A stretch of DNA of 64,000 nucleotides, from the sequence record NZ_CP118990.1; one strand, given 5' to 3'. The stretch's first letter is position 1. Every line of letters starts with the position of its first letter. This document shows, one piece after another, positions 9,870 to 37,006 of this stretch. The notes below the pieces were generated by a model. That model had not been told where the DNA came from. It saw only the letters and a list, made by a program, of their open reading frames with translations, and did no database searches. This DNA comes from a plasmid. A program made the position numbers and the translations under genes.

Positions 9870-9883
9870 CCCGAATTGCGTGA

Positions 9884-12482: not shown

Positions 12483-12520
12483 TGTGTGAGATAGCTGGTC
12501 TCCAAAAACAAACAGCATTC
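12483..12520 (+). promoter_or_regulatory. Partial copy of the conserved ATAGCTGGTC.CC.AAAACAAACAGCA module
   Basis: gagatagctggtctccaaaaacaaacagcattc matches the core of the ~135-bp module repeated at 22.1, 26.3 and 36.9 kb. Confidence 0.5.
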
Positions 12521-12614
12521 TGCTATGTGCCATCTGGCATTTTTAAACCCCACACCGGGGGCGTACTCCCGGTTATCGGGTGTTGCCCCTGTAATACCTT
12601 TCAGGAGTAACACC

Positions 12615-12977
12615 ATGCACATCATCACTTTCATTGCTGTTCTGTTCGTCGCTCTGGGTATGCTTTTCATCGGCGCGAAGGTCTTTGCACTTTCGTTTGT
12701 TGCCCTTGCCAAGCTGTTTCAGCGCGTCGGCTTGTTCCTCTGGAACAAGCTCCCAGTCGCTTCGATTGGTTTGTTCCTCAAGAACAAACTTGTCGAGCCA
12801 GCAATGCGGTCTTTGAAGGCCGTCATAACAAAGAACGTAGCCAAAGCCCGCAAGCCCAAAGCTACTGTTGTGTTTGAACCGCAAGCATTTAATGTTCCGC
12901 GTATTGATTTCGAGCTGGCCTATCCGGATCTCGATGTCCCTGCGTACTTGCGTAAGGGTACCAATATCGTCTGGTAA
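12615..12977 (+). CDS. Small membrane protein
   Basis: CAGGAG RBS; two predicted TM helices; preceded by module core and a GC hairpin. Confidence 0.45.
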   Translation: MHIITFIAVLFVALGMLFIGAKVFALSFVALAKLFQRVGLFLWNKLPVASIGLFLKNKLVEPAMRSLKAVITKNVAKARKPKATVVFEPQAFNVPRIDFELAYPDLDVPAYLRKGTNIVW

Positions 12978-13062
12978 CCTCGGTCGTCACTGACTGTTTT
13001 AACCCATCGGGGCAACTCTCCCCGCTGGGGATGTTGCCCCTTTTAACTCCAGGAGCAACATC

Positions 13063-13155
13063 ATGGAAATCGCTATCATCGCTACATGTATCCCTCCCGC
13101 CTGGTTCATCTCTCGCCCGCTGGTGAAGATTGCTGAGTGGTTTGGCTACCGCTGA
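13063..13155 (+). CDS. Possible 30-aa peptide
   Basis: CAGGAG RBS and ATG directly after an AACCC-GGGG/CCCC hairpin; short, so low confidence. Confidence 0.25.
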   Translation: MEIAIIATCIPPAWFISRPLVKIAEWFGYR

Positions 13156-13268
13156 TAGTTAATACAAAGAGAGAGGGTCACCTCTCTCTTTGGTCAAGCC
13201 TCTGTGGCTTGTCTTTAAAGCCCGCTGCATGAGCTGGCTTTGACGACAAGCTACAGGGGGAATGTCGA

Positions 13269-13448
13269 ATGCAACAACACGTATACGACGATAACAAGGG
13301 CGTCATCTACCTTGCCGACGGGCGCGAAGTTAGGTTTGACTCGACACTCTATTCCAGCGCAGAACTGGCGCATAGCGAAGCGGAGAGATGGGCCAAATTA
13401 ACGGGCGTCATCGGCCAGGACGACGATGTGATGATGTTCGTCCATTAA
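13269..13448 (+). CDS. Small hypothetical protein (59 aa)
   Basis: RBS-like AGGGGGA upstream; followed by strong hairpin ggtggcctc-acaaa-gaggccacc. Confidence 0.35.
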   Translation: MQQHVYDDNKGVIYLADGREVRFDSTLYSSAELAHSEAERWAKLTGVIGQDDDVMMFVH

Positions 13449-13516
13449 TAGGTGGCCTCACAAAGAGGCCACCTCTAACTTGAAGCAAGTCTGCTCACTC
13501 ATGGCTCGGTCATCAG

Positions 13517-13600
13517 TCAGTAGATTTTGTTCTCTTCGGAGAGCGAAAAAGTGCGATAGCTGGTCGCCAAAAACAAACAGCAAACGAACGTTTTTTTTCT
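13517..13600 (+). promoter_or_regulatory. B-type copy of the conserved promoter-like module
   Basis: agattttgttctcttcggagagcgaaaaagtgcgatagctggtcgccaaaaacaaacagcaaacgaacgttttttt; near-identical copies at 17794 and 31180. Confidence 0.55.
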
Positions 13601-13666
13601 AACCCATCCGGGTGCATCCTCCCGGTTCGGGAATAGATGCGCCTGCCATTTATAAGGAACGCATCT

Positions 13667-14635
13667 ATGTCTCAATACGCTCAATACTCAGTAAGCAAGG
13701 TCTTCGGTATGCCAAGCATCCCGGAAAAGGTTTTGGCTGTTGGCTATGCCGATACCACTAACCCGTTCATCCCTGCTACTGATCCCAACTACGTTTTCCG
13801 CAAAGAGTTTCTGCGAGAGGTTTTGGCCTTCCTCAAAGAACCTGGCGGTGACGGGTTGTTCACTACGGGCCCTACCGGGTCAGGTAAAACCTCTGGGATC
13901 ACTGAAATCGCGGGTCGTCTGAATTGGCCTGTACAGCAAATCACTGCCCATGGGCGGATGGAGCTGTGCGACCTGATCGGACATCACGCGCTGATTGCAG
14001 CTAACCCCGGTGAACCCCCTGTCATGAAGTTCATGTATGGACCGCTGGCAGTTGCCATGCGTGAAGGTCATATCCTCCTCATCAACGAGGTGGATCTGGC
14101 TGATCCTGCCGAACTGGCTGGTCTCAATGACGTCCTTGAAGGTCGTCCTCTGGTGATCGCTCAGAACGGTGGTGAAATCATCAAGCCGCACCCGATGTTT
14201 CGTGTGGCTGTTACCGGCAACTCTACTGGTTCCGGTGATGCTTCTGGTTTGTACCAGGGCGTGATGATGCAGAATATCGCCTCAATGGATCGCTATCGTT
14301 TCATCAAGGTGGGATATGCCGAAGATATTGCTGAACTCAGCATTCTTGGACGTGTCACTCCCAACCTGCCGGAGAACATCCGAAGTGGAATGGTGCGTAT
14401 CGCCAACCAGGTGCGCAAGCTGTTCCTCGGTGAGAACGGTGAAGATGGTCAGCTCAGCATTACCATGTCCACTCGGACGTTGGTGCGCTGGGCCAAGCTC
14501 TCTCTCGCCTTCCGTGGTGCCCCTAACGCTCTTGAGTACGCCTTGGATCAAGCTCTGCTTATCCGGGCCGCGAAAGAGGAACGTGAAGCTGTCCTGCGCA
14601 TTGCGAAGGATGTGTTTGGCGAACAGTGGCGCTAA
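13667..14635 (+). CDS. MoxR/CobS-like AAA+ ATPase
   Basis: Walker A GPTGSGKTS; Walker B ILLINEVD; sensor motifs; CobS-like proteins of this size occur in SXT/R391 ICEs and phages, paired with a VWA (CobT-like) protein. Confidence 0.75.
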   Translation: MSQYAQYSVSKVFGMPSIPEKVLAVGYADTTNPFIPATDPNYVFRKEFLREVLAFLKEPGGDGLFTTGPTGSGKTSGITEIAGRLNWPVQQITAHGRMELCDLIGHHALIAANPGEPPVMKFMYGPLAVAMREGHILLINEVDLADPAELAGLNDVLEGRPLVIAQNGGEIIKPHPMFRVAVTGNSTGSGDASGLYQGVMMQNIASMDRYRFIKVGYAEDIAELSILGRVTPNLPENIRSGMVRIANQVRKLFLGENGEDGQLSITMSTRTLVRWAKLSLAFRGAPNALEYALDQALLIRAAKEEREAVLRIAKDVFGEQWR

Positions 14636-14648
14636 GGGGAGGGCGGAT

Positions 14649-15545
14649 ATGAAGCTCAATGACTGTCTGTGCCGTCGTTACACCTTTTCTACTGTGACCG
14701 CTTGGCAAGTTAATCAAACGTTCATTGGTTTCAAAGTGCTGCGGGAGCCCAGCTCCTCAGCACCGGGCCAATTAGTGATGGTTGAAATTTGTCAGGTTGT
14801 TATAAATGGAAAGGCTCAAAATTGGTCCGAGCAGCAGCTTGGAAATACCTTTGAAGCCAACAGCTTTGAAACCATCCCGATGGTCTACCAAGACCAAGAA
14901 AAGCAGCATGTGTCGAAGTTAATCGAGCAGGGGTATGTCTACCTGGACGAGGTACTGGTAAACGCAACGACACGTATTGTGCAGGAAGTGGTAAAGGAGC
15001 GGGCGAACACCTCACCTGTGTGGTGTTCAGTCAACTGGTTGTTTACCCCTCCACCTGGAGGGGGAAAGATCTACAAAAAGTTTCTCAACAGAGTATTTGC
15101 CGAAGCCGCCACTTTGATTGAGTTTAAAGTTGAGCGAGATGGGAGCGATGATGAGCAACTATCCGGGGCATTGATGAGAACGGACAGTGGTTTTGAGCTG
15201 AGGGTAGATCGTAGTCTTGGCGAAAACACCATCCATCCTGACACGCTGGAAGGCGCTGGTGAGATTCGCTACGAACATGGTTATTTGCCGTTGCTGATCC
15301 TGATATACCTGCAACAGCAATATGCCTACCATTTCGTCGGTGTGAGCAATGCCCCATGGGTGACGTTCTGCGATGAGCAGGGCAACCCCTTTGAGTATTC
15401 GAACTTTGATTCGCTGGTACCCTTCATTGAGCGGTTCGGTTTCAGCTATGACGAGGTGAGGAAGGATGCGGAAAGGCTTGGCCTTGCGTCTGCACTGATC
15501 CGTCTGGCTGGGATTGAAACCGAGCAAGAGGACTTGTTCTTTTAA
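14649..15545 (+). CDS. Hypothetical protein
   Basis: GGGGAGGG RBS then ATG at 14649; the ORF-track start at 14316 overlaps the upstream gene and is rejected. Confidence 0.5.
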   Translation: MKLNDCLCRRYTFSTVTAWQVNQTFIGFKVLREPSSSAPGQLVMVEICQVVINGKAQNWSEQQLGNTFEANSFETIPMVYQDQEKQHVSKLIEQGYVYLDEVLVNATTRIVQEVVKERANTSPVWCSVNWLFTPPPGGGKIYKKFLNRVFAEAATLIEFKVERDGSDDEQLSGALMRTDSGFELRVDRSLGENTIHPDTLEGAGEIRYEHGYLPLLILIYLQQQYAYHFVGVSNAPWVTFCDEQGNPFEYSNFDSLVPFIERFGFSYDEVRKDAERLGLASALIRLAGIETEQEDLFF

Positions 15546-15650
15546 CCTTCGGAAGGGAGCTTTTCCCTTCCAAGTTACTTGTAATTAACCCTTCGGGGGC
15601 ACTACTGCCCCGAGGGGCATGGTGTCCCCCAATCACATTGGAGATACACC

Positions 15651-16655
15651 ATGTCTGAAACTAATTCCTTGGTTGTCCGTATGGCTTCCCGCTTCGGAGT
15701 CGATGGCGATAAGTTCTATGCAACGTTGAAAGCAACGGCATTCAAGCAGCGTGATGGCAGTGAGCCGACACATGAGCAGATGCTGGCGCTCATGGTTGTT
15801 GCGGAACAATACAACCTCAACCCCTTTACTCGGGAAATCTATGCGTTTCCTGACAAGCAGAATAAGGGGATTGTTCCGGTTGTTGGCGTTGATGGCTGGA
15901 GCCGTATCATCAATGACCACCCTCAGTATGATGGCGTCGAGTTCGTCTATACGGACAAAATGGTCAAAATGCCGGGGGCAAATGTCGAGTGCCCTGAGTG
16001 GATTGAGTGCGTGATTTACCGTAAGGACAGATCTCGCCCCACCCGCATCAAGGAGTTTCTCGATGAGGTCTATCGTCCGCCGTTTCAGGGGGATGGTGAG
16101 TATGGTGCGTACACAGTTAACGGTCCCTGGCAGACTCACACCAAGCGTCAACTCCGTCATAAAGTGTTGATTCAGTGTGCTCGGGTCGCGTTAGGTTTCT
16201 CTGGTATCTACGACCAGGATGAAGCCGAACGCATTCGCGAGATGGAGCAAGCTACGGCGATCAATCCCGCTGTAGCCAATCTTCCATCACCGGAAACCGT
16301 AAGTCAGATCGTGCCAGAGCCGGTTCAGGAAGTTGTGCTCATTGAGCACAAAGAAATGGACCCCATGCTGACCAAACTCGTTGGCCGCGCCATTAAAGGC
16401 AATGCCTGGTCTGCGGCACACGAGTATGTTGAAGAGCGATACAAAGGTACTCAGTTGGCGTATGCAGTTCACTACCTTCGTGAGAAGCAGATGGACCACA
16501 TGCCCCCCGCTGATGCCGACTACCAGGACATGCAAGGGCCGGTCATTGAACATGATCAGGCAGGTGCAGCACCGGTAGTTCAGGAATCCAATTCCCAACC
16601 ATCAAGTAAAGTGGAGGAGCCTCCCGTGATGGAAGAGGAAGTATGGTACGAGTAA
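15651..16655 (+). CDS. bet: Bet, RecT/Red-beta family single-strand annealing protein
   Basis: N-terminal region resembles lambda Bet / SXT-Bet (S065); acidic C-terminal tail; directly followed by exo. Confidence 0.75.
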   Translation: MSETNSLVVRMASRFGVDGDKFYATLKATAFKQRDGSEPTHEQMLALMVVAEQYNLNPFTREIYAFPDKQNKGIVPVVGVDGWSRIINDHPQYDGVEFVYTDKMVKMPGANVECPEWIECVIYRKDRSRPTRIKEFLDEVYRPPFQGDGEYGAYTVNGPWQTHTKRQLRHKVLIQCARVALGFSGIYDQDEAERIREMEQATAINPAVANLPSPETVSQIVPEPVQEVVLIEHKEMDPMLTKLVGRAIKGNAWSAAHEYVEERYKGTQLAYAVHYLREKQMDHMPPADADYQDMQGPVIEHDQAGAAPVVQESNSQPSSKVEEPPVMEEEVWYE

Positions 16656-16722
16656 TAAACCCCACCGGGGGGCTTCCCCCCTGTTGGGGGGATCTCCCTC
16701 CTAACCACTGGAGAGGTCCGTC

Positions 16723-17733
16723 ATGAAAATAGTCAACCTGTCGCAGCGCGAGGAGGATTGGCTTGCATGGCGGCGTCGAGGCATAACCGCCACCGACGCC
16801 GCTATCTTGCTCAATCGTTCTCCGTACAAAACCCGATGGAGACTGTGGGCCGAGAAGACCGGATATGCGCGAGAAGTCGATCTGAGTCTCAATCCTTTGG
16901 TTCGCCGAGGGGTTGCGAATGAAGATTTGGCAAGGCGAGCTTTCGAGGAGAAGCATGATGACATGCTGCTCCCGGTTTGTGTCGAATCGGTACAATATCC
17001 CCTCATCCGTGCTTCGTTGGATGGATTGAGGGATTGCGGTGAGCCGGTCGAGCTGAAATGCCCGAGCGCGACTGTCTGGCAAGACGTTTGTCTTGAGAAA
17101 GCAAACAGCAACGCATACAGGCTTTACTACCCGCAGGTGCAACATCAGCTCCTGGCTACGGGTGCAAAGCAAGGGTGGCTAGTCTTCTACTTTGAAGGCC
17201 TGATCCTGGAGTTCCCCATACTCCGTGATGAAGCCATGATTCAAGAAATCTTGGCTGAGGCACAGCGGTTCTGGCAGCAGGTGGTGGACAAGAAGGAGCC
17301 CGAAAAAGATCCGGAGAAAGACCTCTTTATACCGCAAGGTAAAGAGGTTAACGCATGGATCGCTGCGGCTGAGGAGTACCGTCTTTATGATGCAGAGGCT
17401 CAGGAGCTGAAACAGCGCTTGGCCGAGTTGCAAGAGAGGCAGAAACCTCACCTCGACACCATGAAGGCCCTCATGGGGCAATACTTCCATGCCGACTACT
17501 GTGGCGTGATGGTGACAAGGTACAAAGCGGCAGGTAGGGTGGACTACAAGAAGCTGTTGGCTGACAAGGCTGCGGGTGTTAAGCCCGAAGACATCGACCA
17601 GTACAGAGAAAACTCATCAGAGCGGTGCCGAGTGACGGTAACTGGCTCGGTGAAACCACGGTACATTGTGGATGATAGGGTCTTGGCCCCTCTCCAAAAT
17701 CTATCGGAAGAAGTAACGTCAAGTTGGTGGTAA
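16723..17733 (+). CDS. exo: Exo, YqaJ/lambda-Exo-like alkaline exonuclease
   Basis: N-terminal WLAWRRRGITATDAAILL...SPYKT motif typical of the YqaJ/lambda exonuclease family; partner of bet as in SXT (S066). Confidence 0.7.
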   Translation: MKIVNLSQREEDWLAWRRRGITATDAAILLNRSPYKTRWRLWAEKTGYAREVDLSLNPLVRRGVANEDLARRAFEEKHDDMLLPVCVESVQYPLIRASLDGLRDCGEPVELKCPSATVWQDVCLEKANSNAYRLYYPQVQHQLLATGAKQGWLVFYFEGLILEFPILRDEAMIQEILAEAQRFWQQVVDKKEPEKDPEKDLFIPQGKEVNAWIAAAEEYRLYDAEAQELKQRLAELQERQKPHLDTMKALMGQYFHADYCGVMVTRYKAAGRVDYKKLLADKAAGVKPEDIDQYRENSSERCRVTVTGSVKPRYIVDDRVLAPLQNLSEEVTSSWW

Positions 17734-17793
17734 GCGGGGATTTCCCCGCTTTACCCGTTTTCCACTGTGGACTCCATGAGTCTCCAATGGAAA

Positions 17794-17872
17794 GCAGATT
17801 TTGTTCTCTTCGGAGAGCGAAAAAGTGCGATAGCTGGTCGCCAAAAACAAACAGCAAACGAACGTTTTTTTC
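17794..17872 (+). promoter_or_regulatory. B-type copy of the conserved promoter-like module
   Basis: Near-identical to 13517-13600. Confidence 0.55.
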
Positions 17873-17936
17873 TAGCCCAACCGGGCGCATCCGCCCGGTA
17901 TGGGACGTGATGCGCCTCAAAAATATGGAGTGCATC

Positions 17937-19130
17937 ATGACTAAAGTGAACCACCTGAATCGCCTGTGCATCATTCACGTTGACTTCGACATCTGGAGCG
18001 GCCAGACCCGTTTGACCGCTGCGGACTTGAAGTTGGGAGTGGGCGGAGAAATCCCCCCCGAGAAGATTGCACTGCTCGGTAGTAAAAAAATCTGTGATCC
18101 GGCGAAGCTGAAAGGCTTCCATCGTCTGAAAACAGAAACTCGCCGTCTCCTGCTGAAATTCGGTATGCCGTTCATGAACGGTTTTGCCGTGCCGGTAGAG
18201 AAGGTCGATGAAATTACTGGAAAGCTCGATGATGTGGGCAGCCAGTTCAATGCTCTAAAACAAGACTTCATCAGGGGCTATAACATGGCTGTTGATGAGT
18301 GGTGTCTGGAGAACCCTGAATACGAAGGTGCTCTTCGCGCTGGCGCTCTCCCTAAGGAGACTGTCGAGAAGCGGATTGCCTTCGAATACCAGGCATTCAT
18401 GATCGTGGCCGATAGCGATAAAGGCCATGCAATGAAGCTCAACCGCAAGGTCGAGTGTCTCGGGGATGACCTCATTACCGAAGTTACCCAGGAAGCCAAT
18501 AAGTTCTACATGGAGCGTCTGGCGGGCCGTGATCAATGTGCTCTCACGACACGACAAACACTCCGGAACATCCGCGATAAAGTGGATGGGCTGAGCTTCC
18601 TGAACAGCGCGTTTACCCCACTGGTTAAGCTGCTCGATCAAACCCTCCGGGGTTACGATCAACATGCAGAGGGGCGAAATGTCGTTGCACCTTTCTTCTA
18701 CCAGGTTGTGGCCGCAGTGCTGATCATGAGCGATAAGGGGCGTATCGAACAATACGCCAACGGTTCGCTCACCGTGGAAGGGATGGCCGAGGGTGTGGTT
18801 GGTGCTGAGCTCGTTGCAAGCGCCGATCAGACGCCGCTCCATCAAAGTAATGCACAGCCTGCTGCACCTATTGCTCCCGAAATCGGGAACACCAATGCGC
18901 AAGCTGCTGAGGTGCTGGTTGATGAGGCTGACATCGATGCCTTCTTCAACAACTATGTAGAAAATCATGATGCTGGTGGTCAGAAAGAGGAGAAGACCGA
19001 GGCTGCACCGGTAGTACCGGACGTGGCTAAGGAACCTCTGGAAACCCCAGTGGAAAATGTAGTGGTGAATCAAACTCCCGTAGTTGAGACGCCACCGAAA
19101 GACGACGGCGTAAACGATCTTTACTTCTAA
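17937..19130 (+). CDS. Hypothetical protein with acidic/Pro-rich C-terminal tail
   Basis: ATGGAG RBS; the ORF-track start at 17724 runs through the module and hairpin and is rejected. Confidence 0.5.
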   Translation: MTKVNHLNRLCIIHVDFDIWSGQTRLTAADLKLGVGGEIPPEKIALLGSKKICDPAKLKGFHRLKTETRRLLLKFGMPFMNGFAVPVEKVDEITGKLDDVGSQFNALKQDFIRGYNMAVDEWCLENPEYEGALRAGALPKETVEKRIAFEYQAFMIVADSDKGHAMKLNRKVECLGDDLITEVTQEANKFYMERLAGRDQCALTTRQTLRNIRDKVDGLSFLNSAFTPLVKLLDQTLRGYDQHAEGRNVVAPFFYQVVAAVLIMSDKGRIEQYANGSLTVEGMAEGVVGAELVASADQTPLHQSNAQPAAPIAPEIGNTNAQAAEVLVDEADIDAFFNNYVENHDAGGQKEEKTEAAPVVPDVAKEPLETPVENVVVNQTPVVETPPKDDGVNDLYF

Positions 19131-19211
19131 GCGCCTCGTTCAATAAACCTACCCGGAGGGGATAGCCACCCTCCGGGATGGACTATCTCCTTCTCTACCT
19201 GGAGAAACGAT

Positions 19212-21008
19212 ATGTCCAAGAAAAGAACCATCTATAGCGCCTTGCCTATCGTGGCAGCTGCTTATGGAGAGAAGCTCGGTGTCAAAGTGGCGATCGGTAA
19301 CGATACCGCTTACACCGACGGAAAAACCATCGTGGTACCGAATATCCCTGACGATTATCCGAACATGGATGCCGTCTGGGGGTATTTGGCTCATGAGGCT
19401 GCCCACGTCCGTTTTACGGATTTTGGCGTGCATCGCCGTAAAGGCCTTCATGCTGAGCTGTCCAACATCCTGGAGGACTGCCGCATCGAACGGGCCATGA
19501 TGGATCTCTTCCCCGGTACCGCGCAAACCCTGAACGAAGTGGCTCGTTATATGGCGCAAGCAGGCCATTATGAGCATGTTACGGATGACGAGGCCCCGGC
19601 CTCGATCCTGACAGGGTTTTGCCTCTACTGGTTGCAAACCAAGGCTGTGGGCCAAACAGTCCTGCAACCCTACCTCGATTCGGCAACCACCGTTATCGGG
19701 CGAGTGTTCCCTCAAGGTGTCGTTGTGCGGCTCAACGCTTTGCTGCGTAAAGCCGTGAATACGAAATCCACCGCTGAGGTTATTTCCTTGACCGACGAGA
19801 TCATCAAAATGATTGAGGAGGAGAAGGAGAAAGAAGAGCAAAAATCCCAGAATGGTCAGGGTGATCAAAATCAGCAAAATGCAGGTGGCGAGCAACCTCA
19901 GAACAATCCGGGCGGGAGTGGGCAGGATCAAAATCAAAGCGCAGGTGGCAATGGTGGCGATCAGCAAGGCAAAGACCAGAAGCAAGAAGGGGCTGGTGGT
20001 CAGTCTGATCCGAAAGGACAAGGCGACCAAGGCTCATCGAATGCCGATGGGAGCACTCAGGCAGGACAGCAATCTGCTGGTGGTGATAATGGCACGTCCA
20101 AACAGGACGCGGCCAAGTTGCTCCAACAGGTTCTTAATGCCGGTGCAGGTGATTTGCGTGGTGACGCGCATGATGCACTGAAAGCTGAGCTCAACCAGGT
20201 GGCACAGGAGCAGGGCAACAGCAGCTATACGACTGTTCGCACTGCCAGTGACACTCACAACAACCCCATCGCAGGTAAAAGCCTGATTGGGAATGTAAAG
20301 AGCACCACGGCCAAGATCAGAACGCAGCTCTACGGCCTGGTACAAGCCAGCCAGCGAGTTGCTCATCGCACTCAGCGTTCAGGGAAGCGTGTTGACGCAC
20401 GGAAGCTACATCGCGTAGTTACCGGCGACACCCGCGTCTTCCTCAAACCGGAAGACAAGAAACGCCCGAACACGGCGGTTCACATCCTAGTTGATATGAG
20501 CTCGTCTATGTCCTATCGGGCAGCCAATGGGAAGGAGCGTCAGGACATCGCACGGGAAGCATCCCTCGCCATTGCTATGGCGCTGGAGGCGATCCCCGGA
20601 GTGAATCCGGCCGTTACCTTCTTTGGTGGCGACGATAATCAACCGGTGTTCAGTGCTGTGAAACATGGAGAGACTGTTCAGAATCGGGCCGGTCGGTTCG
20701 GGTTCAAAGCGAGAGGTAATACCCCGATGGCGGAAGCCATTTGGTATGCTGCCTTTGAACTCACTAAGACCCGTGAAGAACGAAAGATGTTGATCGTAGT
20801 GACAGATGGGGCACCTCAAAATGCCCCGGCCTGTAGCTCTGTCATCAACCTCTGTGAACGCAGTGATGTTGAAGTAATCGGCATTGGAGTTGAGACCAAC
20901 GCGGTAACAAGACTGTTCCCAACGAACATTGTCATTGATGACGCGGCGGCTCTCCAGCGCACGTTGTTCAAGTTGCTTGAGCGGTCCCTGACCTCTTTCG
21001 CGGCTTGA
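19212..21008 (+). CDS. CobT-like von Willebrand factor A (VWA) domain protein with Gln/Gly-rich low-complexity linker
   Basis: MIDAS motif DMSSSMS (DxSxS) at the start of a C-terminal VWA domain; repetitive QNGQGDQNQQNAGG... linker at ~19830-20110; partner of the AAA ATPase at 13667. Confidence 0.7.
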   Translation: MSKKRTIYSALPIVAAAYGEKLGVKVAIGNDTAYTDGKTIVVPNIPDDYPNMDAVWGYLAHEAAHVRFTDFGVHRRKGLHAELSNILEDCRIERAMMDLFPGTAQTLNEVARYMAQAGHYEHVTDDEAPASILTGFCLYWLQTKAVGQTVLQPYLDSATTVIGRVFPQGVVVRLNALLRKAVNTKSTAEVISLTDEIIKMIEEEKEKEEQKSQNGQGDQNQQNAGGEQPQNNPGGSGQDQNQSAGGNGGDQQGKDQKQEGAGGQSDPKGQGDQGSSNADGSTQAGQQSAGGDNGTSKQDAAKLLQQVLNAGAGDLRGDAHDALKAELNQVAQEQGNSSYTTVRTASDTHNNPIAGKSLIGNVKSTTAKIRTQLYGLVQASQRVAHRTQRSGKRVDARKLHRVVTGDTRVFLKPEDKKRPNTAVHILVDMSSSMSYRAANGKERQDIAREASLAIAMALEAIPGVNPAVTFFGGDDNQPVFSAVKHGETVQNRAGRFGFKARGNTPMAEAIWYAAFELTKTREERKMLIVVTDGAPQNAPACSSVINLCERSDVEVIGIGVETNAVTRLFPTNIVIDDAAALQRTLFKLLERSLTSFAA

Positions 21009-21113
21009 TTGAGCATAAAGCGGCTACCCCTGGGTAGCCGCCAGTTTTTGAACCCATCGGGGGCTGAGTTCCCCTAATGGGGATGAAGCCTCAATGTTTT
21101 TGAGGAAATCATC

Positions 21114-21314
21114 ATGGAAAACACCACAACCATCACGACCACGAAAGGCTACACACTGAAAGTGCTTCGTGAGGGTTTGTACTACCAATGCACACATCTG
21201 AATGGCGTCGAGTTGACGCCAGACTATCAAGATGTACTGGTACTGAAAACCGACGCTTCCTTCCTCTGCGGGGCGGCATACACCCCAGCAAACTGGGCCG
21301 GTGTGAAAGTGTAG
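21114..21314 (+). CDS. Small hypothetical protein
   Basis: GAGGAA RBS; preceded by AACCC hairpin. Confidence 0.4.
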   Translation: MENTTTITTTKGYTLKVLREGLYYQCTHLNGVELTPDYQDVLVLKTDASFLCGAAYTPANWAGVKV

Positions 21315-21447
21315 TGTGGGATCAATCTGGTCCCGTGCTGTGAAACGATAAGCGGTTACCCCTTGGGTCACCGCCCTTTATTAAAACCCACAGGGGGCTG
21401 ATTTCCCCCTGCTGGGGGATGAGGCCTCTGATTATCGAGGAATACTC

Positions 21448-27579: not shown

Positions 27580-27675
27580 TGCAGATCGCTTTGTACTGAC
27601 AACACACAAACCCAATTGGGGGCCACCACCCCCCGCTTGGGCCGGTAGTGGCCTCTCTTGCTAAAGGAGAAGGCT

Positions 27676-27972: not shown

Positions 27973-28055
27973 TACAACAAACACATTAACCCACTCGGGG
28001 CCACACCTCCCGACTGGGGCGGTAGTGGCTCTCCCGACACCAAGGAGATACAAAT

Positions 28056-29680: not shown

Positions 29681-29740
29681 CAACTCACCGGGGTAATGCC
29701 GAAAGGCAATTACCCCGGCCTATCCGAAAAGGAGTGAGTC

Positions 29741-30172
29741 ATGAAAATCGAAATGGTTGTGCCCCTACCTGTAGAGGATTCGGGGCTTCAACACAGCATT
29801 GCCAGGTTCCATAATTTTAACATGGACTCAAAGAGGCAAGATAAAGCCAGGTTCTTCCGCAGGGAACCGGTTGTCATCGTAAACCCCGAGACCAAAGCGA
29901 AGGTGTTGCGGTATGCGATGGGTAACCCTGGTGGGCTTTCTATCACCAAGGGAGCGATAGCGTTGGATTACGATGCGGTCGATGCGCTTGGTGTCCGGTT
30001 CAAAGGCGCTGTAGAGCTTGAGGTTCGCAGGGCTAAGCGCTGGGAAGTATGGCAATGGTTCTGGAACCATCGGGATCAGAGCGTTCAGCTGTCAATCAAG
30101 ATGGGCGTAGTCGGTACAGTTCTGGGAGTCCTTGGCTTCCTGACTGGGCTTGCACCGTACCTTCTTGGGTAA
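29741..30172 (+). CDS. Hypothetical protein with C-terminal TM helix
   Basis: AAAAGGAG RBS. Confidence 0.45.
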   Translation: MKIEMVVPLPVEDSGLQHSIARFHNFNMDSKRQDKARFFRREPVVIVNPETKAKVLRYAMGNPGGLSITKGAIALDYDAVDALGVRFKGAVELEVRRAKRWEVWQWFWNHRDQSVQLSIKMGVVGTVLGVLGFLTGLAPYLLG

Positions 30173-30245
30173 TTCAAAAAAACCTTATCGGGCAAAGTAG
30201 GCCCGGTACGGGGCTTGCTTTGCTCTCCCTTCAAGGAGAACAGAC

Positions 30246-30644
30246 ATGGCATATCAAGCAACACTCGCGCCTCTTTCTAAAGAAGAGCTGCTGACAATCC
30301 CTTGCTACCGGTACATCAACTTGGAAGTGCAGGAAGCGGATCTCGAACAATGGGATCAGTGGTTCATGCAGTACCGGCGCAAGCCTCATGTCTACAGCAC
30401 CAAGCGCCAGGGATGCAGCACCTTTCGTGCAGAAATCCAGGGTGACTACGTGAATGTTGACTGGCGGGTTTACCGGACCTGGTGTAACACCTTCCATCTT
30501 CGGTACGCACCGTTGCTTAACGAGCTCGGCGTGAAGGTAACAAACCCTCACATCGGTTCGGAAACACAGTTTCTGGTCGCGAAGCTGATGGACAATGGTT
30601 GGCGCCCCAAAGCGCTGGCCGATTGTACTGTCGGAACCAACTAG
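30246..30644 (+). CDS. Hypothetical protein
   Basis: CAAGGAGAA RBS. Confidence 0.45.
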   Translation: MAYQATLAPLSKEELLTIPCYRYINLEVQEADLEQWDQWFMQYRRKPHVYSTKRQGCSTFRAEIQGDYVNVDWRVYRTWCNTFHLRYAPLLNELGVKVTNPHIGSETQFLVAKLMDNGWRPKALADCTVGTN

Positions 30645-30720
30645 CCAGATCTCAATACAAACCCAGAGGGGAACATGCCCCTTTGGGCCATGTTCCCTCC
30701 CCATCATGAAGGAAGAGAAC

Positions 30721-31089
30721 ATGGGATTACCCGATTCGTATACCCTGACGGAAACGCTGGATAAGCTGCGTTATGTGCTGACAGAGACCCGCAGAACCGG
30801 CGCCCTTGAGTTGTTGGATAAAGCCGTAAGCAAGTCTCGCGAAGACGACGCTTATGCCAAGCAACTGGAAGTGGCGTTGCTGCGCGGTTCAACGTTGGAG
30901 TGCCGGGAGTTGTTCGCGGTGTTTGGTGATTACATCGCCCCACCAAGAGAGACTTTCCCCCCGTATCCACATATGGATGCAGTCAACGGGATAGACTCTG
31001 GCATGTTGGCGGTGAAACTCGAAGGTCAGACGCCAGGTGCAATGCAAGAGAGCATCGATTTCGTCAAGCTGATGAGAGGTATCGCCTGA
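30721..31089 (+). CDS. Hypothetical protein
   Basis: AAGGAAGAG RBS; preceded by long perfect GGAACATGCCCC/GGGCCATGTTCC hairpin. Confidence 0.45.
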   Translation: MGLPDSYTLTETLDKLRYVLTETRRTGALELLDKAVSKSREDDAYAKQLEVALLRGSTLECRELFAVFGDYIAPPRETFPPYPHMDAVNGIDSGMLAVKLEGQTPGAMQESIDFVKLMRGIA

Positions 31090-31117
31090 GCCAATCCGGC
31101 TCAGTCATTTGTCTTAA

Positions 31118-31258
31118 AGGGCAGGGGGAAACCCCTGCTTTCACCACAGTCTACTTACCCATGGCCGCGCCATCGGTAAGCAGATTTTGTTCTCCCTGGA
31201 GAGCGAAAACGTGCGATAGCTGGTCGCCAAAAACAAACAGCAAACTATCAATTTTTTT
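31118..31258 (+). promoter_or_regulatory. B-type copy of the conserved module (with A-type GGGGG-aaa-CCCC head)
   Basis: ggcagggggaaacccctgctttc...gcagattttgttctccctggagagcgaaaacgtgcgatagctggtcgccaaaaacaaacagcaaac. Confidence 0.55.
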
Positions 31259-31320
31259 ATTAACCCACTGGGGGAACGTGCCCCTGATGGGGCCGTTCCT
31301 TCTCCTACCGGAGAAGAACG

Positions 31321-32388
31321 ATGACTAATTACGTGCAATGCAGTGACCTTCCTGTGGAAGTTCAGCAGATGATGAAATACAAAGCCGCTACCGTCGAAGA
31401 CGCCATTGCCATGCACCGTCAAGGACATGTGACAATCGTGGACAACGGCGTGAGCTGGAGTGTGTATCGGCTGGGAGAATACCTCGGTGTCGTGACTTGG
31501 GAGGGCCATAAAGGAACTCCGAGGAATGTGCCTTGTGTACCCCGCAAGAAATACCAGGACAAAGTGAGCCAGTACCGATTGTTGAGTGTCGAGCTGGTTT
31601 CCGAATCTCAGCTACGGGATGAGGGCATTGAGCTGACCATGGCTCAAATGCTTGAACAGCTTGTTGTGGATGGGCCTCGCTTGGTATTGCCAACATCGGT
31701 CACCTTCGCACCGCATTCCTATCAGGTACTGAAAAAAGCGCTGATAAAGGCAAATGGGAAGTATCAAGGCTCCTCGTTTGGTTTTGATAGTCAAGCAACT
31801 GCAACCGATGTTCTGACCCGGCTTATGCAGGGGGAGGACATCAACATCAAGAAGACCCTCCAGTATTATCCGACCACGGATCCTGCTGGTGATCGTCTTC
31901 TGGATGGTGTGAAGCTCAACGGCAAGGTGGTTTGCGAACCGTCGGCCGGAGAGGGTTACATTGTTCGTCGGGCTCTCGCTGCCGGAGCTAAAGAGGTGTT
32001 GGCCGTGGAGCTCTATGAGCCGTTCCATGAACCTCTCCGGCGAGCTGGTGGCCGTATCATCGGGTGTAACATCTTCGATGTCACCCCGGATGATGTCGCC
32101 AATGTAGATGTCGTGCTCATGAACCCGCCATTCTCTGGCGCTCAGGATGTGAAGCACGTTGAGTATGTCCTTTCTATTGTGCCTGATCGTGTGGAGGTCC
32201 ACGCCATCATGTCAGGGGCGGTAAAGGACAACACAAGCCGGATCTATACGGGTTTTCGAACCTTGCTGGATGCGTTTGGAATAAAGCCGGAAGACCTGCC
32301 TGCTGGAACCTTCAAGGACTCCGGCACTCAAGTTAAAAGCTGTATCGTTCGGATACCTAGCCGCCGCAAAGCTACGCTGGCTGCATAA
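31321..32388 (+). CDS. Putative orphan N6-adenine DNA methyltransferase
   Basis: SAM-binding motif I-like VCEPSAGEG and catalytic motif IV VLMNPPFS (NPPF); N-terminal extra domain. Confidence 0.55.
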   Translation: MTNYVQCSDLPVEVQQMMKYKAATVEDAIAMHRQGHVTIVDNGVSWSVYRLGEYLGVVTWEGHKGTPRNVPCVPRKKYQDKVSQYRLLSVELVSESQLRDEGIELTMAQMLEQLVVDGPRLVLPTSVTFAPHSYQVLKKALIKANGKYQGSSFGFDSQATATDVLTRLMQGEDINIKKTLQYYPTTDPAGDRLLDGVKLNGKVVCEPSAGEGYIVRRALAAGAKEVLAVELYEPFHEPLRRAGGRIIGCNIFDVTPDDVANVDVVLMNPPFSGAQDVKHVEYVLSIVPDRVEVHAIMSGAVKDNTSRIYTGFRTLLDAFGIKPEDLPAGTFKDSGTQVKSCIVRIPSRRKATLAA

Positions 32389-34921: not shown

Positions 34922-34925
34922 CATG

Positions 34926-34953: not shown

Positions 34954-35036
34954 GCCCCAAAAAGGCATTTACAGCGTTTTACAAAAAGACCTGGGGCACA
35001 TAATATTTTCCCATTGTCAGCGCTTGCTGGCTCAAT

Positions 35037-35060
35037 GGTAGCTGGCCCAAAACAGCAAAA
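35037..35060 (+). promoter_or_regulatory. Partial copy of module core (tagctggcccaaaacagcaaaac)
   Basis: Matches ATAGCTGGTC.CCAAAACAAACAGCA core; sits after the terminator and before the next gene block. Confidence 0.4.
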
Positions 35061-35126
35061 CTTCCTCAATCCGGAGAGCCCTCTCTGGGGGCGATCCAAA
35101 TCCCCCCCCATCAAGGAGAATGCCTC

Positions 35127-35324
35127 ATGGAAAAATTGAACTCACTCGTTTCTCAACTTGAGAACGTCCAGACCGAACTTGATGATGAAATCATCGAAGA
35201 GGTCATCAACGTCATTCAAACCCGAGAGCAAGGCTTGGCGCTGGAATTAGTTGGCTCGTTACCCGCGAACCATCCCTTCACGCCGTTTGTTGTCGCCCTC
35301 GCGCACAAGATCAACAATAAGTGA
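35127..35324 (+). CDS. Small acidic hypothetical protein
   Basis: AAGGAGAA RBS. Confidence 0.4.
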   Translation: MEKLNSLVSQLENVQTELDDEIIEEVINVIQTREQGLALELVGSLPANHPFTPFVVALAHKINNK

Positions 35325-35447
35325 CTGCTTGGCACCTCTCTAGCAAAATGCCGTGAGAGCACCAACCCACCTATCTCACTTTTACCCACCGGGTACATCA
35401 TGCCCCGGTCGGGCTTGGCGTACCTCCAACATCCAATTGGAGTCAAT

Positions 35448-35735
35448 ATGTCCGATATAGCCACACGCAGCCCTGGTCCTGGCTACCTCAAAATTAAGGA
35501 TTTTGGTTGTGACAAGCTCTTTCAATCTGTCGATGAGCTCAAAGGCGTATTGTCTGAACAGTACAAAGGCAAACACGTCACCATCGTTTACCCGTTGAAA
35601 AGCGGGATTCATAGAATGCTACTCGTCAGCATCAACGCAGAAGGTTGCGTCAATGAGACCTATGGGCAACAGAGGCCGATCGACTTCGCTGCTATCAACG
35701 CTGAACGTCAACTTGCAGAGGTGGTACTCGTATGA
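35448..35735 (+). CDS. Hypothetical protein
   Basis: TGGAGT RBS; preceded by AACCC-type hairpin. Confidence 0.4.
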   Translation: MSDIATRSPGPGYLKIKDFGCDKLFQSVDELKGVLSEQYKGKHVTIVYPLKSGIHRMLLVSINAEGCVNETYGQQRPIDFAAINAERQLAEVVLV

Positions 35736-35950
35736 GTTATCGTCAGGTAGTGCTCGATTCTGATGAATGGCATAGCATGTGGGCCGAGCTGGCGTCTGAG
35801 GAGATCAACTCTGGCGATCCAGCGTGTGTCCATCCAGAAACTCAGGAAGCCTGGCAGTACATGGGTACCAGTAATGGCGTCCATTCGTTCCGTCATCGCA
35901 ATCATCCGGTAACTGGCACAAGAGAATATCGCCACGTTCCAATGAAGTAA
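35732..35950 (+). CDS. Small hypothetical protein
   Basis: ATGA start/stop overlap with the upstream gene. Confidence 0.4.
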   Translation: MSYRQVVLDSDEWHSMWAELASEEINSGDPACVHPETQEAWQYMGTSNGVHSFRHRNHPVTGTREYRHVPMK

Positions 35951-36020
35951 TCCATTAACCCCACCGGGGACATCCGTCCCCGAGGGGAGGGTGTCTCCCA
36001 CTGAAAATCAGGAGATACCT

Positions 36021-36866
36021 ATGATTAAGCAACATTTTCAAAATGAACTGGTCAAGCACGGCTACCCCGCAGATCTGACTATCGAATACAGTCTGGGATA
36101 CTGTCAGGGAGATGGCATGGCCTTCTACGGAAGCCTGGGTGTTGATGACGTTCAGGCACTGATGAAGCGTTTGTTCGGTACCGAGCAGGGCTCAGCCGAT
36201 GCAGTTCGCCGAGTGAAGAACCTGATGGCGCAAAAGGACATCGATCACATGATTAATGTTCTTCGCGATTACGGTAACTGTGACCTATCTATAACTCGAA
36301 ACAGCTTCGGTCAGCATTACAGTCACTGGAATACGATGAGAATCGATAGCAACGTGGACTTCACCGGGGTTTTCCCTGATGAAGAGACCATGCTGGGAAC
36401 TGGCATTGAGGGTATCAACCCTGAGATGTTGGAACGCTGGCAAGGTATCTGGGATCGCTTCATTGACGCGCTCCAGGACGACGTAAAGAGCTTATCCAAG
36501 AGGCTTGAAGCTGATGGATATAAGCTGATCGAAGCTACCCCGTATGAAGAGACAGTTGTTTGGCAACGAACTACTGAAAGCTACCAGGTACGTGTCATCG
36601 AGCTCCCTGAACACGAGTTTGACATGGATGACTGGGATGCAGATTGTCGAGACCAGACCATTCGCGATCTCCTGGATGGGAGTCAGCGAGTGCTGGGCCT
36701 ACGTGTTGAGGTTCGTGATCATGATGGCGATTACATCTTGGCTGACAACAGCATGTATGGTCTGACCCTATCCATCGATGATAAGAAGTACGATGGATAC
36801 AGACGTGAGATGCTCCGGGATGTGATAACGCAGGTCAGATTACTTAACGACCTTAAAGCGGCATGA
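36021..36866 (+). CDS. Hypothetical protein (281 aa)
   Basis: AGGAGATA RBS. Confidence 0.5.
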   Translation: MIKQHFQNELVKHGYPADLTIEYSLGYCQGDGMAFYGSLGVDDVQALMKRLFGTEQGSADAVRRVKNLMAQKDIDHMINVLRDYGNCDLSITRNSFGQHYSHWNTMRIDSNVDFTGVFPDEETMLGTGIEGINPEMLERWQGIWDRFIDALQDDVKSLSKRLEADGYKLIEATPYEETVVWQRTTESYQVRVIELPEHEFDMDDWDADCRDQTIRDLLDGSQRVLGLRVEVRDHDGDYILADNSMYGLTLSIDDKKYDGYRREMLRDVITQVRLLNDLKAA

Positions 36867-36870
36867 TGAA

Positions 36871-37006
36871 GGCAGGGGGAAACCCCCTGCTTTCCAGGTG
36901 GCATAAAATTTCACATGTGAAATTTTTGTGTTACTCGGAAAGCAAGATTTTGCTCTCTGCTGAGAGTAAATCGTGAGATAGCTGGTCTCCCAAAACAAAC
37001 AGCAAT
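36871..37006 (+). promoter_or_regulatory. Full A-type copy of the conserved module
   Basis: See 22076. Confidence 0.65.

Follow-up and report, generated by a model that had tools for sequence, protein, structure and literature searches.

The DNA analysed here, called the window, is a 64,000-nt stretch of plasmid record NZ_CP118990.1, a pAsa4-like relative of the IncA/C plasmids. The repeated ~135-bp modules described in an initial annotation are real, and all of their coordinates were verified. The core, GTG-NNNN-TAGCTGG-NNNN-CC-A-rich-CAGCA, occurs in the window in seven strong copies and one divergent copy, on the plus strand throughout; the pattern TAGCTGGTCNCC has seven matches, on the plus strand only (chance expectation 0.98), and a covariance model built from related copies recovers the same seven at E values of 5e-19 to 1e-9. 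The eighth copy (35003-35062) is a weak match to the model (E 4.2); judged by its relatives it is nonetheless real, because pAsa4 and IncC plasmid pYR1 have orthologous divergent copies, likewise at this AcaCD-dependent promoter. Every copy is co-oriented with the gene downstream, and the end of its tail precedes a start codon by 70-106 nt in all eight window copies, in agreement with the ~70-110 bp originally proposed.

The constant part of the module is ~55 nt long. It opens with hairpin A, which has 6-10 bp, many of them G·U; 5-7 purine-rich nt separate this from hairpin B, in which a 4-bp stem, free in sequence, carries the invariant loop UAGCUGG. An A/C-rich single-stranded tail with CAGC(A) at its end follows. 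In internal modules the order T hairpin, hairpin 0, hairpin A is kept from Aeromonas plasmids to betaproteobacterial elements. The T hairpin is G+C-rich and terminator-like, with a weak U-tract; hairpin 0 is long and imperfect, and its closing stem covaries (GCUUUCC/GGAAAGC, and CUUUUCG/CGAAAAG in Tepidiphilus). The suggestion that copies often directly follow a terminator thus holds for the presence of G+C-rich hairpins, but their U-tracts are poor and a terminator scan does not call them. The features are:

11121-11134: parS core palindrome outside the modules, inside a minus-strand ORF
12404-12416, plus: AcaCD-type activator box GCCCAAAATGGAC, with the geometry of published AcaCD promoters
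12416, minus: divergent AcaCD-type box serving an acaB-like gene
12449-12454, plus: -10 element CTATAT; transcript start predicted at ~12461
12467-12517, plus: leader copy 1, promoter-proximal (E 1e-9); hairpin A (AGTCGC-TCT-GCGACT) 12467-12481, hairpin B (GAGA-TAGCTGG-TCTC) 12488-12502, tail CAAAAACAAACAGCA up to 12517; ATG 12615
13450-13582, plus: module 2, type 2; T hairpin 13450-13474, hairpin 0 13491-13523, hairpin A 13525-13548, hairpin B (GCGA/TCGC) 13553-13567, tail to 13582; ATG 13667, a CbbQ-like AAA ATPase gene, homolog of vcrx089
17729-17856, plus: module 3, type 2; T hairpin inside 17729-17755, hairpin 0 17757-17795, hairpin A 17799-17822, hairpin B 17827-17841, tail to 17856; ATG 17937 (DUF3150)
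22014-22026, plus: AcaCD-type box ACCCGTAAAGGGC, 5' of module 4
22061-22066, plus: likely -10 element AACAAT
~22073, plus: predicted transcript start, directly 5' of the T hairpin of module 4
22076-22210, plus: module 4, type 1; T hairpin 22076-22093, hairpin 0 22094-22149 with parS core TTTCACATGTGAAA at its tip (22114-22127), hairpin A 22154-22177, hairpin B (GAGA/TCTC) 22181-22195, tail to 22210; ATG 22281
26280-26412, plus: module 5, type 1 (fold z -5.2); T hairpin 26280-26293, hairpin 0 26294-26352 with parS core 26315-26328, hairpin A 26356-26379, hairpin B 26383-26397, tail to 26412; ATG 26518
31118-31242, plus: module 6, type 2; T hairpin 31118-31141, hairpin 0 31150-31184, hairpin A 31185-31208, hairpin B 31213-31227, tail to 31242; ATG 31321
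34954-34966, plus: AcaCD-type box, with -10 element CATAAT at 34999-35004; ortholog of P_vcrx114 of pVCR94
35018-35057, plus: divergent leader copy 3' of that box; hairpin A (CAGC-GCTT-GCTG) 35018-35029, GG-TAGCTGG-CC 35037-35047, short tail CAAAACAGCA to 35057; ATG 35127
36874-37004, plus: module 7, type 1; T hairpin 36874-36888, hairpin 0 36889-36943 with parS core 36909-36922, hairpin A 36946-36972, hairpin B 36975-36989, tail to 37004; ATG 37077
37630-39321: zinc-ribbon/Toprim primase gene of the array, after module 7
55235-55248: parS core palindrome outside the modules, inside a tyrosine-recombinase gene

The constant part is a structured element with heavy covariation, known from 81 distinct copies in Gamma- and Betaproteobacteria. 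Hairpin B has its four standard pairs in 88 of 90 matches to loop plus tail (82 entirely Watson-Crick, six with one G·T, none with A·C); the remaining two are chance matches within genes. The change from GAGA/TCTC to GCGA/TCGC, taken at the outset as compensatory and as a sign of selected secondary structure, is indeed that: with relatives included, the stem has 17 versions, each of them complementary, and all four pairs vary on both sides. Hairpins A and B together vary on both sides at 11 of 11 pairs in a model-based alignment of 109 hits (81 distinct), with 97.9% of cells paired as against 73.7% in shuffles and 41-52% with the partners slid, the alignment of hairpin A being fitted to the model structure. 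The GAGA/TCTC stem was also considered as a dyad protein site and is excluded as such, since many stem versions share one invariant loop; of the dyad sites first envisaged, only the palindrome, a sub-part of three modules that matches the IncC-type parS core, survives. No Rfam family matches the leader element.

Wobble pairs read as G·U in the sense strand only, and for hairpin A the sense fold is the stabler one in 65 of 78 copies (mean -9.1 versus -6.3 kcal/mol, p = 2e-12). Internal modules fold with a mean z of -3.9; the core alone is thermodynamically ordinary (z -0.8), and for one full module the antisense fold is as good as the sense fold. Single-stranded DNA of the same strand also tolerates G·T pairs.

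Pairing between CAGC in the tail and GCUG in the loop is possible and would give a small H-type pseudoknot; this helix is invariant, so covariation speaks neither for nor against it. CAGC is retained alongside an A-rich spacer of variable length and sequence, and the only change seen, to CAGU, preserves pairing with loop G. The invariance of the loop and of CAGC implies some kind of partner that recognises their sequence. The architecture, a short stem with a ~7-nt loop and an A-rich tail folding into a compact H-type pseudoknot, resembles that of the preQ1-I riboswitch aptamer. The likeness ends there: the module lacks an Rfam match, its tail is clear of the ribosome site, eight copies per element stand before unrelated genes, and gene context implies no ligand.

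Where, then, does this element lie with respect to transcription? AcaCD/SetCD (FlhDC-like) class II promoters of the IncA/C and SXT/R391 type are found directly 5' of three window copies and of many relatives. The boxes adjoin the module and are not part of it: the AcaCD box, GCCCNDWWWGGGC at -64 to -37 (PMC8373056), is absent from the module, and the module as AcaCD box is accordingly rejected. Seventeen genuine promoter-proximal copies, taken from unrelated elements, have TAGCTGG 87-95 nt (mostly 88) past the start of an AcaCD-type box, which, with the published box position, puts the motif at ~+30; the leader occupies ~+5 to +55 of transcripts. A sigma-70 promoter of Tepidimonas (TTGACA-16-TAGCAT) stands at the equivalent distance. 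The promoter at 12404-12454 is orthologous to P_vcrx087 of pVCR94, whose mapped start sites (65081-65083) are just 5' of hairpin A; the ortholog of the box at 22014-22066 is an AcaCD ChIP-exo peak 5' of vcrx098, without a mapped start. The start codon mostly follows TAGCTGG by 94-108 nt, and more than 35 unrelated protein families are encoded downstream. In SGI1 the 32-nt core is unchanged behind the AcaCD-dependent promoter P_S018. The association is not general for AcaCD: the AcaCD-dependent dsbC promoter of the window (box at 84) has no leader, and the eight pYR1 copies are all confined to the array that separates traN from traF, so that none stands before a transfer-gene operon.

The modules were first thought to be a co-regulated family of promoters or operators for SetCD, AcaCD or SetR. 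This reading is not supported: they contain no AcaCD box, and a sigma-70 promoter scan calls none in any of them. In IncC, AcaCD dependence covers the whole array. The pVCR94 genes behind box-less modules (vcrx089, 094, 107, 112 and 120) score 0-12 in RNA-seq when AcaCD is absent and 46-1649 in wild type, and ChIP-exo finds no AcaCD peak at these modules (PMC4207636 supplements); by RT-PCR, a single transcript runs from vcrx087 to vcrx094 across two modules (PMC7498323). The box-less modules of the IncC orthologs therefore lack autonomous promoter activity.

A different kind of promoter, activated by a second plasmid factor that itself depends on AcaCD or by an alternative sigma factor, and giving each box-less module its own transcript, is unlikely. 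Such a cascade would account for AcaCD-dependent expression where AcaCD is not bound, Rockhopper operons in pVCR94 do begin at modules (vcrx089-093, 094-095, 107-111 and 112-113), and elsewhere the leader always comes after a promoter. However, there is no conserved -35/-10-like sequence, and hairpin 0, where the promoter would have to be, varies freely in sequence. The T-run and G of 'AGATTTTG' are the 5' arm of hairpin A, and in the Comamonas copies an AcaCD-type box and a -10-like hexamer, CATACT, precede 'AGATTTTG', which is therefore presumably transcribed. The vcrx087-vcrx094 region is found in one RNA, RNA levels do not rise consistently at box-less modules, and a candidate activator sought among the array proteins was not found. 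Repeated regulatory cassettes before many accessory or anti-restriction genes are familiar from mobile elements, as the CUP repeats of IncN plasmid pKM101 and the PeSL cassettes of T4-type phages, and may likewise promote modular shuffling; those cassettes carry active promoters, which the modules here apparently do not.

Slightly less probable again is a leader that acts in cis as a processive antiterminator, like the two-hairpin put RNA of phage HK022, allowing transcription from a few AcaCD promoters to cross the terminator-like hairpins of the 30-kb array. Two adjacent hairpins right after a promoter, a terminator-like hairpin before every internal copy, demonstrated read-through and the driving of the whole array by few promoters all fit this reading. 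But the internal copies are 3', not 5', of the hairpins to be crossed, and these, with their weak U-tracts, may need no help. Similarity to put, nut or ops is lacking, the ops consensus GGCGGTAGnnTG fails at an essential G in most copies, and a NusG/RfaH-like gene was not found in the window.

At the level of DNA, the modules belong to the same sequence family as rptI of IncC plasmid pVCR94 (85% identical), present in 7-8 copies per IncC plasmid at orthologous intergenic positions. Roy et al. 2020 (PMC7498323) describe the rptI repeats as substrates of Bet/Exo repair: deletions between copies were recovered after Cas3 cleavage, and three reported sizes (9268, 10310 and 23702 bp) equal the distances between mapped copies. 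That paper treats them as recombination substrates only, with the suggestion that their palindromes perhaps pause Exo, and reports no RNA structure, covariation, leader role or spread beyond IncC-like plasmids and SGI1. It is nevertheless improbable that the modules are kept as dispersed direct repeats for double-strand-break repair by single-strand annealing, even with bet and exo in the same array. Annealing requires identity between copies, not complementarity inside one, and copies of one plasmid differ precisely at stem positions; covarying stems, sense-only G·U and the fixed distances from transcript start and start codon go unexplained. Use in repair, though demonstrated, may be a by-product.

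More doubtful still is action of the hairpins in the single-stranded DNA entering a recipient, as priming signals for a plasmid primase or as Frpo-type promoters. The copies are all on one strand, the array encodes a zinc-ribbon/Toprim primase, its genes act in the recipient, and DNA can accommodate G·T pairs; DnaG recognises the trinucleotide CTG, which the loop contains. Yet a priming site gives no rationale for fixed distances from transcript start and start codon, and a single-strand promoter needs a folded template strand, whereas the wobble pattern favours the sense strand. The Frpo/ssi promoters of F-like leading regions are also hairpin-rich one-strand repeats before anti-defence genes of conjugative plasmids (PMC11541004); the stems of the module lack their -35/-10 sequences, and the array is not beside oriT but, in IncC, tens of kb away. 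Either strand may be the one transferred, as the nic site of IncA/C was not found (PMC5587640). That the modules are remnants of a small mobile element (a MITE or an IS end) is hardly credible: they are dispersed and of similar length, but their ends lack terminal inverted repeats and target duplications, and they keep orthologous positions in the window, pAsa4 and IncC, one orientation and a fixed distance to the start codon.

One part of the module does have a DNA-level counterpart. The palindrome TTCACATGTGAAA is in the three full copies, as initially annotated, and at two additional sites outside modules (11122 and 55236). The 14-bp core TTTCACATGTGAAA is identical to that of the IncC parS site, which is bound by a KorB-domain ParB (PMC10954446), and such cores are scattered in both plasmids (14 in pYR1, five in this window), some intergenic and some inside ORFs. 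IncC also has one in a xerC-like gene, comparable to that in the tyrosine-recombinase gene here. Since the flanks are AAAA/TTTT rather than the AAAC/GTTT that IncC ParB needs, binding by a cognate pAsa4-type ParB is presumed. Only three of eight window modules carry the core, so that parS explains one sub-part and leaves hairpins A and B unaccounted for. The rptI repeats and the parS palindrome are thus already published; hairpins A and B with the A-rich tail appear to be the new part.

Taken as a whole, the initial interpretation is supported in part, and the alternative that it listed last, a small structured RNA, comes closest to the evidence. The module is probably a 5' leader, transcribed as part of the mRNA that it heads and acting in cis, with a parS/ParB site in three copies. 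Directly behind a promoter (AcaCD-type or sigma-70) this leader begins ~5 nt past the transcript start; inside the AcaCD-dependent array it is preceded instead by the terminator-like hairpin and hairpin 0. The weak terminator would mostly be read through by polymerase, and hairpin 0 may mark a 3' end or a processing point, cut by RNase III in its stem or by RNase E in the 2-4 unpaired nt beyond. Each downstream message would then start with hairpin A, as primary transcripts do, and hairpin A could protect the 5' end. Hairpin B and the tail may set translation or decay of the following gene, whose ribosome site would lie within a further hairpin, by way of a C/A-rich ribosome standby or enhancer site or a site for a putative factor; ribosome-site burial behind modules, however, exceeds that at the other genes of these loci only slightly (0.66 versus 0.59). 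At the DNA level, hairpin 0 would in three copies also present a parS/ParB site at its tip. The analysis shows the structure, its strand, its place in the transcript and, for the IncC orthologs, the absence of autonomous promoter activity; from these we infer processing, stabilisation and translational control by the leader along the lines given.

There are precedents for such an arrangement. Phage T7 has RNase III processing hairpins between its early genes, and the ompA leader has a stabilising 5' stem-loop. As in these systems, a transcript that is read through carries long imperfect hairpins repeatedly between its cistrons, and each message has a hairpin within a few nt of its 5' end; the modules have no sequence similarity to either system, and cleavage and stabilisation are putative here. 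On the best reading, this leader recurs at intervals along a long gene array that depends on an activator, in an IncA/C-like resistance plasmid as well as in many conjugative elements related to it.

The repeated module is present in the window at every place where the initial annotation had put it. There are seven occurrences of its core, TAGCTGGTCNCC, all of them on the + strand, where chance would give about one; R1, a covariance model built from related copies, recovers the same seven with E values of 5e-19 to 1e-9. An eighth copy, at 35003-35062, has a weak R1 score (E 4.2) and is accepted because pAsa4 and the IncC plasmid pYR1 share its divergent version at an orthologous AcaCD-dependent promoter. 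All copies end 70-106 nt before a start codon, in keeping with the gap of ~70-110 bp originally described. A full module consists of a G+C-rich, terminator-like hairpin, hairpin 0, hairpin A, hairpin B and an A-rich tail ending in CAGC; the last three make up the leader. We take the modules to be cis-acting leader RNAs, the demonstration being confined to the structural and positional parts of that reading.

Structure is conserved over a wide range of hosts. A scan with TAGCTGGNNNCCNNAAACAANCAGC, restricted to one genome per species, yielded 67 loci, from Vibrio, Shewanella, Photorhabdus, Edwardsiella, Providencia (in an SGI1-like island), Alcanivorax, Marinobacterium and Idiomarina, and also from Betaproteobacteria, among them Comamonas, Tepidimonas, Tepidiphilus and Sulfuritalea. 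Four standard pairs surround the loop of hairpin B in 88 of 90 loop-plus-tail matches, the other two being obvious chance matches inside genes. These stems occur in 17 versions; 82 are fully Watson-Crick, six have one G·T and none has an A·C, and in a gap-free alignment both sides change at all four pairs. In the related loci compared, R1 recovers 109 copies (81 distinct), in whose alignment both partners vary at all 11 pairs in hairpins A and B and 97.9% of cells are paired, against 73.7% when shuffled and 41-52% when partners are slid by one to three columns; since this alignment was fitted to the model, the figures somewhat inflate the support for hairpin A and leave that for hairpin B unaffected. 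U·G and G·U pairs are frequent in hairpin A, and in 65 of 78 copies it folds more stably when read in the sense direction. It is accordingly the sense strand that folds, as mRNA or, in formal terms, as DNA of that strand. Full modules fold well below their shuffles (z -5.2 and -3.2), and the antisense strand of one of them folds equally well; single-sequence folding of the core alone is not significantly different from shuffles (z -0.8). The energy of the core is thus unremarkable, and the case for it rests on comparison.

The leader also has a fixed place in its transcript. Among 17 genuine promoter-proximal copies on unrelated elements, TAGCTGG, the loop of hairpin B, follows the first base of an AcaCD-type box by 87-95 nt (mostly 88). 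By the published box geometry, hairpin A would lie near +5 and the loop near +30, a placement with which the mapped transcript start of vcrx087 in IncC pVCR94 (65081-65083) agrees; in Tepidimonas the corresponding site is taken by a consensus sigma-70 promoter. The Comamonas elements have a GATTTTG stretch 3' of both the AcaCD-type box and a CATACT -10-like hexamer; it is therefore likely to be transcribed, and folding assigns its T-run and G to the 5' arm of hairpin A. Start codons mostly follow 94-108 nt 3' of TAGCTGG, and the genes behind the leader belong to more than 35 unrelated families. Fixed distances and unrelated genes thus define the leader as a portable cassette of ~130-150 nt. 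Covarying helices, sense-strand specificity and a constant position relative to transcript start and start codon are the general attributes of a structured cis-regulatory leader RNA, and the module shows all three; covariation, strand bias and position accordingly favor the selected secondary structure, or small structured RNA, that had been entertained as an alternative at the outset.

The modules had been regarded primarily as a family of co-regulated operon promoters, and this is not upheld. The AcaCD box (GCCCNDWWWGGGC, at -64 to -37 of the transcript start; PMC8373056) is found inside none of them, so that they are not AcaCD/SetCD-dependent promoters; boxes scoring at least 12/13 lie upstream of three copies only, at 12404, 22014 and 34954. 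The proposed comparison with AcaCD ChIP-exo data likewise goes against the promoter family: the IncC data have no peak at modules lacking an upstream box, and the box is not part of the module. For sigma-70 promoters (TTGACA- and TATAAT-like hexamers spaced 16-18 bp), a scan of 12000-31900 called 12 sites against 13.2 expected, none in a module, and the module's -10-like AAGATT would place a transcript start inside hairpin A. A sigma-54 promoter fails the GG/GC spacing test by eye and is rejected because the -12 position is A-rich. By published RNA-seq, the pVCR94 genes behind box-less modules (vcrx089, 094, 107, 112 and 120) have values of 0-12 in an acaCD mutant, of 46-1649 in wild type and of 382-10485 when induced; RNA levels at these box-less modules show no consistent step up, and by RT-PCR a single mRNA runs from vcrx087 to vcrx094, reading through the modules (PMC7498323). 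These findings correct the obvious interpretation: the array is probably a small number of activator-dependent transcription units with punctuation at the RNA level, rather than a string of independent promoters. In a first rival reading, the modules are promoters driven by a secondary activator. Further AcaCD-type boxes lie at 84-96 (+), upstream of dsbC, and at 12416 (-), divergent, for an acaB-like gene. The dsbC promoter lacks a leader element, so that the leader is tied to accessory or "establishment" genes and not to transfer genes.

Where no promoter lies upstream, two structures precede the leader, from Aeromonas plasmids to betaproteobacterial elements (mean z -3.9). In the internal modules the first of these is a G+C-rich hairpin; immediately 3' of it, hairpin 0 is an imperfect hairpin of 20-27 bp with the closing stem GCUUUCC/GGAAAGC, which covaries (for example, CUUUUCG/CGAAAAG). 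Of the terminators originally placed ahead of the copies, the G+C-rich stems stand. An intrinsic terminator would need five or more U among the 8 nt behind such a stem; the tails are of the CUGCUUUCC type, and the terminator scan called none of them. Put-like antitermination is a second rival, and RT-PCR in IncC documents read-through of terminator-like hairpins.

At its tip hairpin 0 carries, where present, a parS palindrome. The 14-bp symmetric core TTTCACATGTGAAA is exact in the modules at 22114, 26315 and 36909, and is the fully conserved core of IncC parS (PMC10954446), to which the KorB-domain ParB binds in EMSA when the flanks are AAAC/GTTT (PMC10954446). Those flanks are absent here, the window and pAsa4 having AAAA(T)/(A)TTTT; the candidate sites AAAATTTCACATGTGAAATTTT are presumed to be bound by the cognate pAsa4-type ParB. 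The palindrome TTCACATGTGAAA, first seen as a component of the three full copies, is indeed in each of them and also stands outside modules, at 11122 and 55236, where the parS core is located as follows:
11121-11134: within an ORF on the - strand, beside the acaB-like gene
55235-55248: inside a tyrosine-recombinase gene
IncC likewise has a parS core inside its xerC-like gene, and pYR1 has 14 dispersed copies, one of them in a module. At the Shewanella carassii (~130) and Vibrio injensis (~814) loci a parS-type palindrome, AACTTTCACATGTGAAAGTT, lies ~30 nt 3' of the leader core instead of 5'; palindrome and leader are therefore associated in no fixed order.

The module is ~85% identical across 862 PLSDB plasmids, typically at seven places per record. 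Homologous sequence and orthologous intergenic positions make it a member of the rptI repeats of pVCR94 (rptIa-f, intergenic, the longest 155 bp), named by Roy et al. 2020 (PMC7498323). Cas3 breaks are repaired by Bet/Exo annealing of rptI copies (PMC7498323), and pYR1 copies, mapped onto pVCR94 coordinates via flanking gene starts, are 9268, 10310 and 23702 bp apart, exactly three published rptI deletion sizes. The searched literature describes the repeats as recombination substrates only, and selection of the modules purely as recombination repeats is a third rival; an exact-sequence full-text search for the palindrome and loop returned nothing relevant. SGI1 carries an identical 32-bp piece of rptIb (PMC7498323). 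A fourth rival is a single-stranded-DNA signal; comparison with Frpo/ssi (-35 and -10 hexamers paired in a long stem, on the transferred strand) finds no promoter hexamers in the module stems, and the searched literature gives no nic site for IncA/C. A MITE or IS remnant is discounted, as there are no terminal inverted repeats or target-site duplications at the module ends and the positions are orthologous between plasmids.

Several narrower identifications fail. The ops/RfaH element (GGCGGTAGnnTG, with G immediately 5' of TAG in the non-template strand) is rejected because TAGC can be preceded by any of the four bases, according to stem version; no NusG-like protein is found among the scanned window proteins. 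UGCUCU in hairpin A is not boxA/nut, because it is base-paired and covaries, and GCTGGT is not Chi-like, because a free stem follows GCTGG. An exposed RNase E site at AG/AUUUUG is weakened: UUUUG is the 5' arm of hairpin A, with 2-4 nt unpaired. The SGI1 sgm-sRNA (PMC9299015) and the S004-repA stem-loop (PMC7826253) come from different regions and are unrelated to the module.

The window is a close relative of Aeromonas salmonicida pAsa4 (91.6% identity over 86% of a 17-kb query), IncC plasmids (MOBH, MPF_F) being more distant. The array is the counterpart of vcrx087-vcrx125 in pVCR94, a region that includes a host-defence-evasion operon (PMC7498323). The genes and the other repeats of the window are:
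158-9869: dsbC, traC, a TrbC-type pilus-assembly gene and traN, with unscanned ORFs between
9919-10564: 94-bp tandem repeat, ~7 units, G+C-rich (GGGGGATCATGGCCGGGGGCCTGCGGCGGCCCCGG...), directly 3' of traN, overlapping mechanical ORFs
12.5 to ~46 kb (+): array of CbbQ-like ATPase, RecT/Bet, YqaJ exonuclease, DUF3150, VWA/CobT-like protein, DUF3085, DNA methylases and zinc-ribbon/Toprim primase
12993, 13593, 16651, 17866, 21044, 25870, 37005, 37488 and 39586: copies of a second dispersed family, ~40 nt each, AACCC, a G+C hairpin and GGG(G/A)(T/A)
37630-39321: plasmid-encoded DnaG-like primase ("toprim" protein; zinc ribbon, DUF7146, Toprim_3), behind the last module
43389-43565 and 46609-46785: 177-bp direct repeat, 97% identical, 3.2 kb apart, flanking the NERD-nuclease gene region at the array end
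46711-52744 (-): six genes with sub-threshold but concordant matches to Csf2, Csf3 and Csf4/DinG, and a weak Cas6e-like match
52867-52962: two units of a repeat of period 60-61 bp, beside the six-gene block
55876-56583: 11-12 units of the same repeat
The second dispersed family lies 3' of leaders, in distant relatives as well, and also in ordinary gaps between array genes; it could represent another conserved RNA element ahead of ribosome sites. The 177-bp repeat may mark an insertion or a recombination scar. The 60-61 bp repeats (conserved part CCCCCGCAGGYGGGGGTTAACGG) are somewhat degenerate, with compensatory changes in a palindromic stem; judged from sequence, block and repeats are probably a plasmid-borne type IV-A CRISPR-Cas system.

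No family of Rfam 15, STAXI, preQ1-I and the traJ leaders included, gives a match at gathering threshold in the window or any match in six related loci. At E up to 5, 12300-37300 gives one weak, unrelated match:
21963-22060: PYLIS_2 (E 4.1; 18.4 bits, with the gathering score at 36), a short way 5' of module 4
The rptI repeats, the parS core and the neighboring AcaCD promoters are known; what appears new is the structured cis-regulatory 5' leader, unusually widespread and unusually well supported by covariation, a candidate RNA family absent from Rfam.

As cis-acting leader RNAs the modules might work as follows. Polymerase from the few AcaCD promoters would read through the weak terminator-like hairpins; hairpin 0 would be a 3' end or processing point, so that each message would start with hairpin A, as primary transcripts do; hairpin B and the tail would influence translation or decay. 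A buried ribosome site, as reported for a hairpin at vcrx089 (PMC7498323), is real and not module-specific, the effect being small (0.66 for module-led genes against 0.59 for other genes of the same loci). The invariant loop, together with CAGC, suggests that a sequence-specific partner exists. No RNA-binding domain is recognizable among the scanned array proteins; a cold-shock-domain protein (53032-53751) is rejected as a conserved RNA-chaperone partner, the IncC gene compared (36815-37540, picked by equal length and taken as vcrx127) being unrelated.

GCUG of the invariant loop could pair with CAGC at the tail end to form a pseudoknot, a helix that minimum-energy folds often choose; covariation speaks neither for nor against it. 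In divergent copies the A-rich spacer varies in length and sequence and CAGC is kept. Its sole change, to CAGU in three copies, retains a G·U pair; the helix is otherwise invariant, and one copy has an uncompensated loop change, UAACUGG. It is conceivable, if improbable, that the A-rich tail with its CAGC folds with hairpin B into a compact pseudoknot serving as sensor or docking site, which could bind a small ligand or a conserved protein, or act on RNA polymerase itself. It would then be a shared post-transcriptional switch, holding "establishment" genes back in donors and releasing them after entry. If so, anti-restriction, recombination, methylase and primase genes would be under one switch throughout a very large family that takes in conjugative plasmids, ICEs and their parasitic islands.

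IncC/IncA plasmids, with their relatives, rank among the major vehicles of multidrug resistance, and the genes behind the modules help the plasmid to survive CRISPR and restriction on arrival in a new host (PMC7498323). The loop and tail of the leader are conserved to the nucleotide, and the parasitic island SGI1 has copied it. With more than 35 unrelated genes behind it, this one leader would therefore be a control point common to the whole set, and would offer experiments or antisense inhibition a clean target.
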